Shown piece after piece: positions 60,004 through 64,000 of a stretch of DNA of 64,000 nucleotides. This stretch comes from Candidatus Latescibacterota bacterium (GTDB lineage Bacteria; Latescibacterota; UBA2968; UBA8231), in contig OZ242318.1 of assembly GCA_965208105.1 (NCBI GenBank), forward strand, positions 2,144,001 through 2,208,000, read 5' to 3'. Below the pieces are notes generated by a model. It searched no databases. It saw only the letters and a list, made by a program, of their open reading frames with translations, and had not been told where the DNA came from. Made by a program: the position numbers and the translations under genes. Positions within the stretch are counted from its first letter, which is position 1; every line of letters starts with the position of its first letter.

Positions 60004-60083
60004 GCAGTAACTATTAACTTTCTCTTTTGTATATCAATTTCTACTCTATTTATGGTTAGGTTTTCCAACCGTCTTTCATTCAT
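60004..60083 (-). pseudogene. N-terminal remnant of cassette ORF A, cut by IS3
   Basis: MNERRLENLTINRVEIDIQKRKLIVTA, paralog of 62256-62483. Confidence 0.85.
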
Positions 60084-60122
60084 TTCATTTCCTTCCGTAG
60101 AAATGTGATTGTGATTGATTAA

Positions 60123-60192
60123 ATGTGTCCCGGCCTCCTGAGTGGGAGATTCAGGCAACGGAGACCAAGCCGCCGCCTTAGCCGGGACACAT
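60123..60192 (-). ncRNA. Putative three-way-junction structured element, copy 1
   Basis: Closing stem ATGTGTCCCGGC/GCCGGGACACAT with two inner hairpins; related copy at 62171-62247. Confidence 0.55.
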
Positions 60193-61040
60193 CATTTTGT
60201 TTCCTTCTTGACCTTCCCCCAGCTTGTTTTCTCGATGGCGGTTGAGTTATCTTCCTCAAGTAGCATCCTGAATCCGAAATATGGCAAGGTAAATTTTGTC
60301 GGTGGGGCCATCCGATATGCAGAGCGGGTGTACCAGGGATGAGTAGGCCATTCAACAAGGTATCCATAGCCTCCATCGTCTCCGCCGCGCAGCAAAACCC
60401 GGCCTCCTGGCTTGGGACTATAGGGGTTGGTTGGATCTATTAAAGGCTGATCTTTATAATCTCTTTGGTCATCACTGGTGAATTCCATTACACCTGCATT
60501 CATATTATATAATCCCCACGGGTTGGGGAAGAGCTGCCAATTTTTCTCGATCCATTTATCGCCAAACCACCACAAGGTAGTAGTCCCGGCCCGCGCGGCA
60601 TATTCCCATTCGGCTTCTGTAGGCAAGCGGAAAGTTAGATCGGTTTGGTCGTTCAAGCGGTCTAAATATTCCTCAATATCAAAAATTGTGATATCATTTA
60701 TAAAGTGTTCAGGTTTTTCTACTTCTTGGTCTGGGTCCATGATAGAAAACCATTGACCTTTATTCACTTCTCTTTTGCCCAGATAAAAGCCCTTGGTTAT
60801 AGTTACTCGATGCTGCGGGAATTCTAAAGAATAAGGAATGGCGGCGAAGCTGAGGGGATGTTTATGAGAATTGTATTCGTCCCATTTCTCTTTCCATTCT
60901 ATGGGCGTTCCCATGAGAAATGTACCGGGTTCGATCCATATAAATTCCATAGACTCGCCCCCCGGTAGAGAGACAGTAATTTCTTCGGCATAGGTCCAGG
61001 CAGACCATGCCAGAAAAAGGACTACTATTGATTTTGTCAT
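60192..61040 (-). CDS. Secreted FGE-sulfatase / C-type-lectin-fold protein with SWG tail (cassette 1)
   Basis: Signal peptide [33 protein letters not shown]; tail [12 protein letters not shown]. Confidence 0.92.
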   Translation of the reverse strand: MTKSIVVLFLAWSAWTYAEEITVSLPGGESMEFIWIEPGTFLMGTPIEWKEKWDEYNSHKHPLSFAAIPYSLEFPQHRVTITKGFYLGKREVNKGQWFSIMDPDQEVEKPEHFINDITIFDIEEYLDRLNDQTDLTFRLPTEAEWEYAARAGTTTLWWFGDKWIEKNWQLFPNPWGLYNMNAGVMEFTSDDQRDYKDQPLIDPTNPYSPKPGGRVLLRGGDDGGYGYLVEWPTHPWYTRSAYRMAPPTKFTLPYFGFRMLLEEDNSTAIEKTSWGKVKKETK

Positions 61041-61336
61041 TTTGTTTTCTCCTTCTCTATCTTTTTTACCCTTCTGAGTATTTCGTCTAATCTTGCTACC
61101 ATATCGCCATATCTCTTTATCCTCCACACTCCCCGGATTCCGGTAGTCTCGATTAGTCCCTTTCCCCGTAGGCGAGAAAGTGCGGTAGTGATGGAGCAAT
61201 TAGGCCAATTTCCATTTATCCCGGCTTTTCTCCCGGTGGCCCGCTTGTTTTTCAATAGTGCCTGCTTGCGGAAATAGCCCTGTCCATTGGCTATTTTCTC
61301 GATATGCGCCATAACTGCATCTTCCAAAGAAGCCAC
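61037..61336 (-). CDS. Winged-helix protein (Mrr N-terminal-like), cassette 1
   Basis: [37 protein letters not shown] overlap with the FGE gene. Confidence 0.75.
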   Translation of the reverse strand: MASLEDAVMAHIEKIANGQGYFRKQALLKNKRATGRKAGINGNWPNCSITTALSRLRGKGLIETTGIRGVWRIKRYGDMVARLDEILRRVKKIEKEKTK

Positions 61337-61450
61337 TATACTTTCTCCTATGTATTTCCCTCACTTTCTGGTATCCCGGACCAAAGGGAAGGGCTATAAA
61401 TTAAATATCAGAAATTCCCCTGTTCTCCATATTTAAATTTTTCTATATTC

Positions 61451-61587
61451 AAAAGAGCCGGGAACCACGTGATAGCTCAGTGTCTTCGCTCGGGAGCGGT
61501 TGTTGCCTTTCAGCAACGTGCTACGGAAAAGCTCGCTCCTCCGCGGTAGCTACTAACGACAAAGAGCCGTGCGGTTCCCGGCTTTTT
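61451..61587. ncRNA. Putative 137-nt long hairpin element, copy 1
   Basis: AAAGAGCCGGGAACC/GGTTCCCGGCTTTTT closing stem; nested TAGCT/AGCTA, GGAGCG/CGCTCC and GTTGC/GCAAC pairs. Confidence 0.55.
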
Positions 61588-61629
61588 CTTCGGAATAAGA
61601 ACATACTGAATCAGATTAGAAAATCTAAT

Positions 61630-61666
61630 AAAAAAAGGCGCTACTTCTTTTATGAAGTAGCGCCTT
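61630..61666 (-). terminator. Intrinsic terminator
   Basis: GGCGCTACTTC/GAAGTAGCGCC stem followed by a T7 tract on the minus strand. Confidence 0.85.
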
Positions 61667-61690
61667 GTCTTTCTTGGGGTTCAGGCCCGG

Positions 61691-61792
61691 TTAGGTTAGT
61701 TCGTTCCTAACCCTGTTCATATAGGCCCTTTGCTCGGCAAGGGTGATCTCGGGATCTCCCCTTTTGTCGGGAATTACATAGGAAGGTTCCAT
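61691..61792 (-). CDS. Putative leaderless 33-aa small protein
   Basis: MEPSYVIPDKRGDPEITLAEQRAYMNRVRNELT; TGCTATAAT lies 7 nt before the ATG; terminator follows. Confidence 0.5.
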   Translation of the reverse strand: MEPSYVIPDKRGDPEITLAEQRAYMNRVRNELT

Positions 61793-61799
61793 AAGTGCA

Positions 61800-61808
61800 A
61801 TTATAGCA
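61800..61808 (-). promoter_or_regulatory. Consensus extended -10 promoter element
   Basis: TGCTATAAT. Confidence 0.6.
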
Positions 61809-61847
61809 AGGAATTAGAGAAAAGGAGGATAGAAATGGACCAGGAAG

Positions 61848-62138
61848 TTAGCAGGAATCTTGAGGAGAATCAGGAGGAATATCGCCGCTCCTCATCTGAG
61901 AATCAAACCGATCAAAACCAGAGCCCTGGAGATCCCCAGGAATTGCCTTTACAAGATCCCGGGCAAATTCCAGCATCTTCTGATCTGAAGCAGAAATTTG
62001 ATCCCCCGATACCAGACGGGCTGAATTTAGGTGAATTTCATCTCGCAGTGTGGGATAGGCTTCGTGAAGCGATATTAAGAGAGCGGCAAGATACGTAGCT
62101 GCTAATTCTTTGCCTGGATCACTGAAAGTACATTTCAT
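61848..62138 (-). CDS. Hypothetical protein (cassette ORF B)
   Basis: 96-aa ORF with GGGAGG RBS downstream of the structured element. Confidence 0.6.
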   Translation of the reverse strand: MKCTFSDPGKELAATYLAALLISLHEAYPTLRDEIHLNSARLVSGDQISASDQKMLEFARDLVKAIPGDLQGSGFDRFDSQMRSGDIPPDSPQDSC

Positions 62139-62170
62139 CTCATTTCCTCCCGTAGAAATGTGATTGATTA

Positions 62171-62247
62171 AATGTGTCCCGGCTGGCCGGGGAGAGTTGG
62201 CCTTCAGGCAGCGGATTATCAGTCCGCTATCTTAGCCGGGGCACATT
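62171..62247 (-). ncRNA. Putative three-way-junction structured element, copy 2
   Basis: Closing stem ATGTGCCCCGGCT/AGCCGGGACACAT; inner stems differ in sequence from copy 1 but still pair. Confidence 0.55.
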
Positions 62248-62255
62248 AAAGTATT

Positions 62256-62483
62256 TTACCGAATATGAGAGAGCTTTGAACAAATATCTTTGTAAGCCAC
62301 TTCGCGAATTTTTTCTAAGACTTCGGCAAGCCCTAAAAGATTGTCAGGAAGAACAGAGATGTTTACCAATACATCGAATCTTTTGTCACCTTGGCCACAA
62401 GAGGCAGTAACTTTTAATTTTCTCTTTTGCATATCAATTTCTACTCTATCTATGGTTATATCTTCCAATCGTTTTGCATTCAT
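62256..62483 (-). CDS. Hypothetical protein (cassette ORF A)
   Basis: 75 aa; ATGA overlap with the FGE stop; paralog at 60004-60083. Confidence 0.75.
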
Positions 62484-63349
62484 TTTGTTTTCTCCTTGAT
62501 TTTCCCCCAGCTTGTTTTCTCGATGGCGGTGGGGTTATCGCCTTCAAGTAGTATCCTGAATCCGTACCATGGCAAGGTGGTTTTTGTAGGTGTGCTATAC
62601 CGAAACGCATGGCGGGTGTACCAGGGATGGGTAGGCCATTCAGCGACGTTTTGAGCGGTACCATCGTCTCCGCCGCGTAGCACAACATAGCTTCCTGGCT
62701 TGGGACTATAGGGGATGGTTGGATCTATTTCAGGCTGATCTTTATAAACTCGATAGCCACGATTGCCATCCCTATAGCCATCACTGGTGAATTCAAATAC
62801 ACCTCCATGCATATCATATAACCCCCACGGGTTGGGGATGAACTGCCAATTTCTTTCGCTCCATTCATCCCCAAACCACCATAAAGTAGTAGTCCCGGCC
62901 CGCGCGGCATATTCCCATTCGGCTTCTGTAGGCAAGCGGAAAGTTAGATCGGTTTGGTCGTGCAAGCGGTCTAAATATTCCTCAATATCAAAAATTTTGA
63001 TATCAGTTATAGATAGATCGGGTTTTTCTACTTCTTGGTCTGGGTCCATAATAGCAAACCATTGGCCTCTATTCACTTCTCTTGTGCCCATATAAAAGCC
63101 CTTGGTTATAGTTACCTGATGCTGCGGGAATTCTGAAGTATAAGGAATGCGGCCGAAGCTGGTGCGAGATTTATAGGAATTATATTCGTCCCATTTCTCT
63201 TTCCATTCTATGGGCGTTCCCATGAGAAATGTACCGGGTTCGATCCATACAAATTCCATAGACTCGCCCCCCGGTAGAGAGACAGTAATTTCCTCGGCAT
63301 AGGTCCAGGCAGACCATACCAGAAAAAGGACTACTATTGATTTTGTCAT
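62480..63349 (-). CDS. Secreted FGE-sulfatase / C-type-lectin-fold protein with SWG tail (cassette 2)
   Basis: Paralog of 60192-61040 with a 7-aa insertion; tail [12 protein letters not shown]. Confidence 0.92.
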
Positions 63350-63645
63350 TTTGTTTTCTCCTTCTCTATCTTTTTTACCCTTCTGAGTATTTCGTCTAAT
63401 CTTGCTACCATATCGCCATATCTCTTTATCCTCCACACTCCCCGGATTCCAGTAGTCTCGATTAGTCCCTTTCCCCGTAGGCGAGAAAGTGCGGTAGTGA
63501 TGGAGCTATTAGGCCAATTTCCATTTATCCCGGCTTTTCTCCCGGTGGCCCGCTTGTTCTTCAATAGGGCTTGCTTGCGGAAATAGCCCTGTCCATTGGC
63601 TATTTTCTCGATATAGTCCATCACTGCTTTTTCTAAGGAAGCCAC
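63346..63645 (-). CDS. Winged-helix protein, cassette 2
   Basis: Differs from 61037-61336 at 4 of 99 residues. Confidence 0.75.
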
Positions 63646-63759
63646 TATACTTTCTCCTATGTATTTCCCTCACTTTCTGGTATCCCGGACCAAAGGGAAG
63701 GGCTATAAATTAAATATCAGAAATTCCCCTGTTCTCCATATTTAAATTTTTCTATATTC

Positions 63760-63896
63760 AAAAGAGCCGGGAACCACGTGATAGCTCAGTGTCTTCGCTC
63801 GGGAGCGGTTGTTGCCTTTCAGCAACGTGCTACGGAAAAGCTCGCTCCTCCGCGGTAGCTACTAACGACAAAGAGCCGTGCGGTTCCCGGCTTTTT
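63760..63896. ncRNA. Putative 137-nt long hairpin element, copy 2
   Basis: Identical to 61451-61587. Confidence 0.55.
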
Positions 63897-63938
63897 CTTC
63901 GGAATAAGAACATACTGAATCAGATTAGAAAATCTAAT

Positions 63939-63975
63939 AAAAAAAGGCGCTACTTCTTTTATGAAGTAGCGCCTT
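63939..63975 (-). terminator. Intrinsic terminator, copy 2
   Basis: Identical to 61630-61666. Confidence 0.85.
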
Positions 63976-64000
63976 GTCTTTCTTGGGGTTCAGGCCCGGT

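Follow-up and report, generated by a model that had tools for sequence, protein, structure and literature searches.

We have analyzed a low-GC segment at the end of a 64,000-nt stretch of DNA (the window; positions 2,144,001 to 2,208,000 of contig OZ242318.1) from a Candidatus Latescibacterota bacterium, in which a small operon for a secreted protein of the formylglycine-generating enzyme (FGE)/C-type-lectin fold is present in two head-to-tail copies. The genome is a single contig of 4.85 Mb with 61.6% GC overall. The repeat units have 45.2% GC, and within the window the GC content is 42-49% from about position 60004 to the end, compared with 57-72% upstream. An earlier note on the window, made from the sequence alone, had described an AT-richer unit of about 2.3 kb repeated head to tail, and a repeat search of the window bore this out, with direct repeats at a start-to-start spacing of 2288-2400 nt. 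The note had taken the units for part of a tandem array. A blastn search of one unit against the whole 4.85-Mb genome found exactly two copies and no third, copy 2 ending 78 nt past the window. The features are listed here in window coordinates; positions beyond 64000 are window equivalents from an extended locus (L001), in which 12000-13088 corresponds to 64000-65088.

58738-60003, plus strand: IS3-family insertion sequence (IS) with inverted-repeat ends; Pfam rve (1.2e-20), rve_3 and HTH_21
60004-61769, minus strand: copy 1, from blastn and alignment
60003-60083, minus strand: open reading frame (ORF) A1, first 27 codons only, cut by the IS3 element
60086-60192, minus strand: element E1, a three-way-junction stem-loop directly 3' of the FGE1 stop codon
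60192-61040, minus strand: FGE1, 282 aa, secreted, PF03781 (E 9.6e-19), 0 Cys, with C-terminal tail
61037-61336, minus strand: 99-aa orphan gene of copy 1, its stop overlapping the FGE1 start (ATGA)
61337-61693, minus strand: leader of copy 1, 100% identical to 63646-64002 (0/357 mismatches)
61694-61769, minus strand: remnant (pseudogene) of the 362-aa gene, its last 25 codons and stop, with 100% identity to residues 338-362 (tblastn)
61800-61808, minus strand: extended -10-like motif TGCTATAAT, read from the sequence, within the 78 nt that separate ORF B from the junction
61848-62138, minus strand: ORF B, a 96-aa orphan with a single match in the genome
62134-62246, minus strand: element E2, between ORF A2 and ORF B
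62256-62483, minus strand: ORF A2, a 75-aa orphan, its start overlapping the FGE2 stop (ATGA)
62404-64078, minus strand: copy 2, its end 78 nt beyond the window
62480-63349, minus strand: FGE2, 289 aa, with signal peptide, PF03781 (E 3.2e-25) and a 7-aa insertion relative to FGE1
63346-63645, minus strand: 99-aa orphan gene of copy 2, its stop overlapping the FGE2 start (ATGA)
63646-64000 (to 64002), minus strand: leader of copy 2; ahead of it, off the window, lies the intact 362-aa gene
64000-65088 (L001 12000-13088), minus strand: intact 362-aa gene, off the window

Organization and boundaries of the repeat

All protein genes of the unit lie on the minus strand. Read in that direction, copy 2 consists of the 3' end of the intact 362-aa gene, its terminator, the leader, the 99-aa ORF, FGE2, ORF A2, E2, ORF B and the duplication junction. 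Copy 1 consists of the remnant of the 362-aa gene, the terminator, the leader, the 99-aa ORF, FGE1, E1 and the 27 codons of ORF A1, at which the IS3 element cuts it off. This is the minus-strand gene order that the earlier note had given. Full-length ORF A2, E2 and ORF B occur in the upstream copy only. Overlapping ATGA starts and stops couple the 99-aa gene to the FGE gene, and FGE2 to ORF A2. As had also been stated, neither the ORF list nor Pfam reveals an integrase, Rep or reverse transcriptase (RT) inside the unit, and by the same two sources the only enzyme in or beside it is the IS3 transposase. The genome has 9 Phage_integrase matches, the nearest of which (window 4046-4501 and 11410-11850) are more than 45 kb away.

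The duplicated segment begins 100 nt before the stop codon of the 362-aa gene, and at the junction (61769/61770) the DNA downstream of ORF B is joined to these last 100 nt. No homology is found there between the DNA downstream of ORF B and the interior of the 362-aa gene. Both copies have the intrinsic terminator of that gene, with a 13-bp stem and a T-run (61635-61666 in copy 1; terminator scan). Since the upstream boundary falls inside the 362-aa gene, the "33-aa ORF" and the "terminator" that had been assigned to the unit are the duplicated 3' end of that gene. The former (61691-61792) is a chimeric frame over the junction with its last 25 codons from the 362-aa gene. The other limit is lost under the IS3 element, which abuts copy 1 and truncates its downstream end. 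The limits of the unit are thus duplication breakpoints and not the ends of a self-contained cassette, as had been supposed. A two-hexamer promoter scan did not list the -10-like site TGCTATAAT (61800-61808).

The IS3 element is bounded at 58738 and 60003 by terminal inverted repeats, TGACCT(T)GCCCCC, and has no visible target-site duplication at its ends. A second copy, 96.5% identical, is found at genome positions 3159198-3160472, and there are further copies in the genome. In two metagenomic runs described below (X5 and X6), a 93%-similar IS end in the opposite orientation meets the same boundary.

Divergence between the copies

The mismatch profile between the copies, taken at fixed offsets, is strongly uneven. 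There are 0/76 mismatches in the remnant and 0/357 in the leader (0/433 together), 13/300 in the 99-aa gene and 4/171 in the first 57 codons of the FGE gene, followed by 43/389 and 48/268 in the rest of it, together with a 21-nt indel. In the 99-aa gene 8 of the 13 differences fall inside 23 nt. The 99-aa proteins differ at 4/99 residues, as had been noted from the sequence, with a dS of 0.118 and a dN/dS of 0.21. The 27 codons of ORF A1 encode 74% identity to residues 1-27 of ORF A2 (tblastn), with a dN/dS of 0.39.

The copies are recombination mosaics with at least three levels of divergence. Clock-like divergence does not account for an identical leader beside genes with a dS of about 0.12-0.15, and the mosaic therefore points to recombination or gene conversion. 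The identity of the non-coding parts reported in the earlier note is correct. In neutral DNA as old as the diverged genes, tens of differences would be expected in the remnant and leader, and there are none; they are thus a recent conversion or recombination tract and not a conserved "non-coding part".

The repeat in natural populations

The stretch was sought in public metagenomes. Its share of sampled words was 0.87-0.90 in four runs of one sample, which is probably the source of the assembly, and 0.23-0.40 in sponge and marine metagenomes of other studies. Logan contigs of four runs (X1, X5, X6 and X7) were aligned to L001 5500-14500. Stretches without contig cover in some runs were not taken as absence, FGE1 in X5 and X6 excepted.

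In X1, the probable source run, contigs tile both copies with 0 differences, and the junction is crossed by a contig that starts 30 nt inside the repeat, one letter under the criterion for bridging. In X6, from another study, the junction is spanned by a 657-nt contig (L001 9199-9856) that extends 571 nt to one side and 87 nt to the other. The junction is therefore real DNA, and the duplication is neither an artefact nor private to one assembly.

A different arrangement was found in X5, where one 1896-nt contig (depth 12) carries the leader, the 99-aa gene and FGE2, followed directly by E1, ORF A1 and the IS end. Its FGE2 region is the same allele as in the window (1 mismatch in 1038 nt), and part of this allele is also present in X6. 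At the FGE2/E1 joint 2288 nt are skipped and 11 letters are shared; the same joint occurs in X6. Neither X5 nor X6 had a match to FGE1 at a likeness of at least 92%. The form in X5 and X6, both sponge metagenomes, is a single-copy recombinant, and the locus is structurally polymorphic between natural populations, with two copies or one and with alleles that have been reshuffled from one position to the other.

The X5 contig also bears a copy-1-type patch at the 5' end of its 99-aa gene, and it steps back by 2214 (from 11517 to 9304) compared with a copy offset of 2309. By arithmetic on the joints, this corresponds to a 95-nt, frame-breaking deletion in the 99-aa gene. The putative regulator is therefore not maintained everywhere, which tells against the proposal that the unit is governed by a regulator of its own.

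Leader and stem-loop elements

The structured elements described earlier are well supported by folding, since the leader, E1 and E2 all fold better than every shuffle. The leader of copy 1 contains a large branched hairpin (about 61457-61582) and has a z of -7.3. E1 folds at -48.6 kcal/mol (z -5.4), with 0/200 shuffles as good, and E2 at -44.3 kcal/mol (z -4.2). E1 and E2 share the outer stem and tail, while their inner hairpins differ; the similarity was detected as repeat families D5, D7 and D8. The E element ends with a Shine-Dalgarno-like sequence and the start codon of the following ORF, and the tail of E1 bears such a sequence, GGAAGG, ahead of ORF A1. The leader and E elements may act in the mRNA, as 5' and intercistronic stem-loops that would stabilize or tune the operon transcript.

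The genome holds two E elements only. The 23-nt core of E has 0 exact matches in either the metagenome_contigs or the viral_contigs set, and the leader DNA has 0 matches in 60 genomes of the family, save the coding remnant, for which G001, a genome of the same genus, has a match at 77%. A search of 20 kb with Rfam at E values up to 1 gave NiCo and HOTAIRM1_3, both below threshold and rejected as chance matches.

The FGE-fold proteins

The secreted FGE/C-type-lectin-fold gene of the earlier note was confirmed by matches to PF03781 in both copies. FGE1 and FGE2 share 78% amino acid identity, and FGE2 is a paralog or an allele of FGE1. Catalytic formylglycine-generating enzymes, human and bacterial, use an active-site cysteine pair that binds copper. 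FGE1 and FGE2 have no cysteine at all and thus cannot be catalytic enzymes of this type; from their sequences they are best read as non-catalytic binding modules.

Between FGE1 and FGE2 the dN/dS is 0.79 and the dS 0.153, with 74.5 non-synonymous and 24.5 synonymous differences. Compared with the next paralog, FGE3, the two have dN/dS values of 0.16 and 0.12. The differences span about 650 nt, including the 21-nt (7-aa) indel, and non-synonymous changes predominate in patches, at 13:1 in codons 61-90 and 9:1 in codons 181-210. These ratios suggest that the FGE-fold protein is under relaxed or diversifying selection. A secreted protein with elevated dN/dS and a lineage-specific tail is a candidate for the recognition of host, prey or phage.

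The C-terminal tail occurs beyond the two FGE proteins. The motif [STAG]WGx[IVL]K followed by a short, often basic tail was found in 28 of the 20979 stop-to-stop frames of at least 100 aa genome-wide, one of which looks like a chance match. T(A/N)V usually stands ahead of it, as in PTAVE..SWGxIK. Four of these frames lie in the window (54110-54985 and 56772-57812 on the plus strand, 60192-61040 and 62480-63349 on the minus strand). The secreted proteins that bear it are unrelated to one another and include FGE-fold and TolB-like ones; NCBIfam models gave no match to the motif. It has the look of a lineage-restricted signal for protein sorting or anchoring, with no transmembrane segment.

The orphan genes

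The product of the 99-aa gene had been described as a winged-helix protein. In its favour is a weak Pfam match to AbiEi_4 (E 0.005), which at 17.3 bits is below the cut-off of 25. A single-sequence AF2 model with the order H-H-H-E-E-H has a low pLDDT of 48.6, so that a winged helix is a tentative assignment. In the protein atlas the protein fell near unnamed clusters at 0.90 and DsrD at 0.88. No relatives were found in 40 related genomes, in the genome_contigs, viral_contigs and metagenome_contigs sets, or among 5.8 billion proteins of near lengths. The lone match among 1.84 billion representatives (E 3e-4), a low-complexity repeat protein, was judged to be due to chance, as was a PADLOC match to MTase_II (E 0.0039, 14 bits).

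Neither ORF A nor ORF B belongs to a Pfam, NCBIfam, PHROG or PADLOC family, and both have 0 matches in the 60 family genomes. In the protein atlas ORF A2 matched unnamed clusters only, with scores of 0.86 or less. The genome has the 99-aa gene, ORF A and ORF B, as well as E and the leader, at this locus only. The expectation that these parts travel together in related genomes or metagenome-assembled genomes was not borne out, as searches that covered 40-60 related genomes, three contig collections and two protein libraries gave none of the five. No generalization from the orphan genes and stem-loops is possible, given that nothing like them turned up in these searches.

The 362-aa family and the surrounding island

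What is conserved beyond this locus is the pairing of the FGE gene with the gene that the duplication has cut. The 362-aa protein belongs to no Pfam family and has 15 relatives among 5.8 billion proteins; no relative was confirmed in the genome_contigs set. The AF2 model has a pLDDT of 65, and its best Foldseek matches in the PDB are TIM barrels of glycoside hydrolases (GH14, GH5, GH42, GH20 and GH168), with TM scores of 0.4-0.5 and an E value of 3e-5. The model thus points to a probable TIM-barrel, glycoside-hydrolase-like fold for the family.

Members of the family are found in this genome at window 55241-56572 (minus strand), L001 12000-13088 and 15256-16425 (both minus strand), and genome positions 3153034-3154128 and 1022965-1023543. 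A gene of the 362-aa family adjoins an FGE gene at four loci. At 3.152-3.154 Mb, for example, a TolB-like gene, a 362-like gene and FGE3 lie on one strand, with a gap of 52 nt before FGE3 and no winged-helix gene. The family is multi-copy and often fragmented, and in 3 of 24 related genomes its members stand regularly by FGE-fold and TolB-like genes. In G001 and G010 the family genes cluster with FGE and TolB-like genes, with many fragments, and in G001 an IS630-like transposase follows the ortholog of the 362-aa gene. G016 has two partial matches and a TolB-like fragment, with no FGE match within the 16 kb examined. As judged from gene neighbourhoods, the conserved module is a 362-family gene and an FGE gene, often with a TolB-like gene, and not the repeat unit.

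The locus lies in a low-GC, IS-rich, hypervariable island of a sponge-associated bacterium. In addition to the repeat the island holds a BstA-like abortive-infection gene, paralogous TolB-like genes and genes of the 362-aa family. The first of these encodes a KilA-N protein just outside the window (L001 14382-15053, minus strand; window equivalent 66382-67053) that matches the BstA abortive-infection family (phrog_6287, 5e-44; PADLOC BstA, 2.6e-11; Pfam KilA-N, 8e-18); the 3' end of the gene overlaps the start of a 160-aa secreted protein with an SWGxVK tail. Directly upstream of the 362-aa gene is a 95-aa frame (L001 13078-13365, plus strand; window equivalent 65078-65365) with the motif HRYVNEFAGRHN, which looks like the C-terminal fragment of an IS1595/ISXO2-type transposase; Pfam at E 0.01 gave no match to this frame. 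In the portions of the literature on sponge symbionts, Latescibacter and sulfatases that were available to us there is nothing on this locus, and no search was aimed at the C-terminal motif or the 362-aa family.

Another leader, of about 200 nt, is conserved directly upstream of the FGE0 gene and of TolB-like genes, and includes GGAGAAATCAGGCAGTTGTTCCGTTTACC and a GC-rich hairpin formed by GCCGGCGC and GCGCAACCGGCGCC. It has three copies in the genome, all within the island (window 53793-54001 and 56540-56792; L001 17368-17573), and is shared with the same-genus G001 (locus L017, about 13700-13980 and 16640-16915). It is absent in front of the operon of the 99-aa and FGE genes. This sequence may be a common promoter/operator or RNA leader for secreted proteins of the island.

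Away from the window, a 401-aa protein (L022 4766-5971, minus strand; genome about 3150766-3151971) with a C-terminal Mrr_cat restriction-endonuclease domain is encoded directly downstream of the 362-family/FGE3 pair, and copies of the IS3 element lie 5-15 kb from this group. The region looks like another variable or defence-type island.

Origin of the repeat

We consider it likely that the repeat arose by imperfect tandem duplication of a small lectin-fold operon into two copies (period about 2.3 kb), as an ordinary product of recombination in a variable island. General cell machinery would suffice: unequal crossing-over and gene conversion between copies or alleles would act on a horizontally acquired, low-GC operon, and microhomology-mediated joining and IS-mediated rearrangement would add to the variation, with no cassette-specific enzyme involved. 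Several observations sit uneasily with this account. The copies are not colinear past the FGE gene (FGE1-E1-ORF A1 compared with FGE2-ORF A2-E2-ORF B), so that a single duplication event is insufficient and at least three rearrangements are needed; unlike a simple tandem duplication, the locus has ORF B once and FGE genes far more diverged than a recent duplication would leave them. The FGE2/E1 joint shares 11 nt only, a short length for crossing-over that depends on RecA. Although the inner hairpins of E1 and E2 differ in sequence, both elements fold into a three-way junction, which hints at selection on structure and is compatible with a site-specific role. Finally, contig depth in X1 is about 6-8 on the FGE1 side and about 3.5-4 on the side of FGE2 and the 362-aa gene; a mixed population is possible, and since contig depth cannot rank parts the difference is not read as copy number.

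The earlier note had proposed a dedicated, self-contained and amplifiable cassette system that forms arrays and, controlled by a regulator and structured elements of its own, diversifies a secreted binding protein. Part of this stands: copy number is one or two depending on the population, divergence is greatest in the FGE gene (dN/dS 0.79), shuffled sequences fold far less well than the structured elements, and translational coupling links the genes into one operon. Against it, there are two copies and no array, the unit boundary lies inside another gene, the single-copy form of X5 has the 95-nt deletion in the 99-aa gene, the sole enzyme at hand is the IS3 transposase, and the searches of genomes, contig sets and protein libraries gave no relatives for the 99-aa gene, ORF A, ORF B, the leader or E. 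The proposal is weakly supported, in that copy number varies and the FGE gene diversifies but an array, a self-contained unit and conserved co-occurrence are lacking, and as a whole it is quite unlikely. What we found is essentially the one-off duplication, with two copies and no co-occurrence elsewhere, that the note itself had named as the outcome contrary to its proposal. A Campbell-type origin is unlikely as well, if slightly less so. Here a 2.3-kb circle, from the 3' end of the 362-aa gene to ORF B, would have been excised from one chromosome and integrated through the identical leader of a chromosome with the FGE1 allele, the ORF B/remnant junction being the closure of the circle. One crossover in T would give exactly the layout P-T-(FGE2-A2-E2-B)-T'-(FGE1-E1-A1'), identity in the leader is 100% while the FGE alleles are 12-18% apart, and the junction recurs in run X6 of a second study. 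However, the 2.3 kb carry no replication or integration function, the X6 contig fits a tandem repeat equally well, and on present data the outcome is indistinguishable from that of unequal crossing-over.

It is very unlikely that the E elements, with or without the leader hairpin, serve as folded sites of recombination in a cassette-shuffling mechanism that is so far undescribed and has no linked recombinase. If it were so, shuffling through E would reorder or duplicate small cassettes behind a lectin-fold gene in sponge symbionts, and the observed variants would follow from it, with E on either side of ORF A, a copy number of one or two, and an FGE2/E1 joint exactly at the edge of E. In its integron-like form, with E1, E2 and possibly the leader hairpin as attC-like sites, ORF A, ORF B and the 99-aa/FGE gene pair as cassettes and a recombinase encoded elsewhere, the idea is highly improbable. 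It would account for E at different cassette boundaries (after FGE1, after ORF A2), for a conserved outer stem with variable inner hairpins, and for the X5/X6 joint exactly at the boundary of the FGE stop and E1. Yet the genome has two E elements, the 23-nt core was without exact matches in the metagenome and viral contig sets, no tyrosine recombinase lies within about 45 kb, and the attC core-site consensus, RYYYAAC/GTTRRRY, was not seen at the ends of E; the 11 nt of the joint are ordinary shared FGE coding sequence, which is a sufficient explanation. An integron-like role of E is thus without every defining feature tested. It is equally improbable that two strain alleles of one locus were stitched head to tail in assembly. 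The genome has an estimated contamination of 8%, the depths of the two halves differ about two-fold in X1, and the X1 contig across the junction has no more than 30 letters on one side of it. But the junction joins DNA downstream of ORF B to the middle of a gene without homology, a contig of the independent run X6 bridges it with 571 and 87 nt, and the presence of ORF A2, E2 and ORF B in the upstream copy only means that the copies are not simple alleles. Targeted mutagenesis of the FGE gene, by a diversity-generating retroelement (DGR) or otherwise, has next to no chance of being the explanation. DGR variable proteins commonly carry a C-type-lectin fold, so the target fits, and a stem-loop lies 3' of the FGE1 stop. 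The single RVT_1 match of the genome, however, is a 453-aa RT/maturase of a group II intron (RVT_1 and GIIM; genome 509620-510255, locus L024 1159-2520), which is 1.7 Mb away and the only RT in the genome. The FGE 3' end has no repeat that resembles a template, its other matches being paralogs of at most about 70% identity; the 95 FGE mismatches have no adenine bias (27 A in each copy), and the differences span about 650 nt with a 21-nt indel. A DGR was rejected on these three grounds of RT, template and adenine bias.

The preferred reading, duplication by ordinary recombination, reveals no new mechanism. Its value is as a worked example of island turnover in an uncultured sponge symbiont, in which duplication, conversion, truncation by an IS and collapse can be followed across independent metagenomes.

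Comparison with known systems

Integron cassette arrays likewise have short ORFs without a recognizable promoter of their own, with imperfect palindromes of about 70-110 nt between them, and here too the element occurs at varying gene boundaries. Unlike integrons, the locus has no IntI nearby, two E elements without a family elsewhere, and no attC core motifs that could be seen. DGR variable proteins with the C-type-lectin/FGE-sulfatase fold include Mtd of Bordetella phage and TvpA of Treponema. The FGE proteins described here resemble them in having a secreted FGE/C-type-lectin fold with varying patches and a stem-loop just after the gene; they differ in that there is no DGR-type RT, template repeat or adenine-specific pattern, and in the presence of an indel.

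Among non-catalytic FGE-sulfatase proteins, PvdO and the GldK/PorK type share the PF03781 domain with FGE1 and FGE2, for which NCBIfam gave partial matches far under the cut-offs, at E 3e-15 for PvdO and 3e-11 for GldK. Unlike the PvdO and GldK/PorK-type lipoproteins, FGE1 and FGE2 are small, stand-alone secreted proteins with a lineage-specific C-terminal TAxE..SWGxIK and basic tail, and their genes are paired with a gene for a TIM-barrel-like protein of 362 aa and not with pyoverdine or type IX secretion system genes.

There are also close parallels with the tandem segmental duplications of bacterial chromosomes, which amplify and collapse through gene conversion and unequal crossing-over. 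A difference is that one or more of the collapse joints here use 11 nt of identity only. Shared with such duplications are the head-to-tail copies, the novel junction that cuts a gene, copy-number variation between populations, identical tracts beside diverged ones and an IS at the edge.

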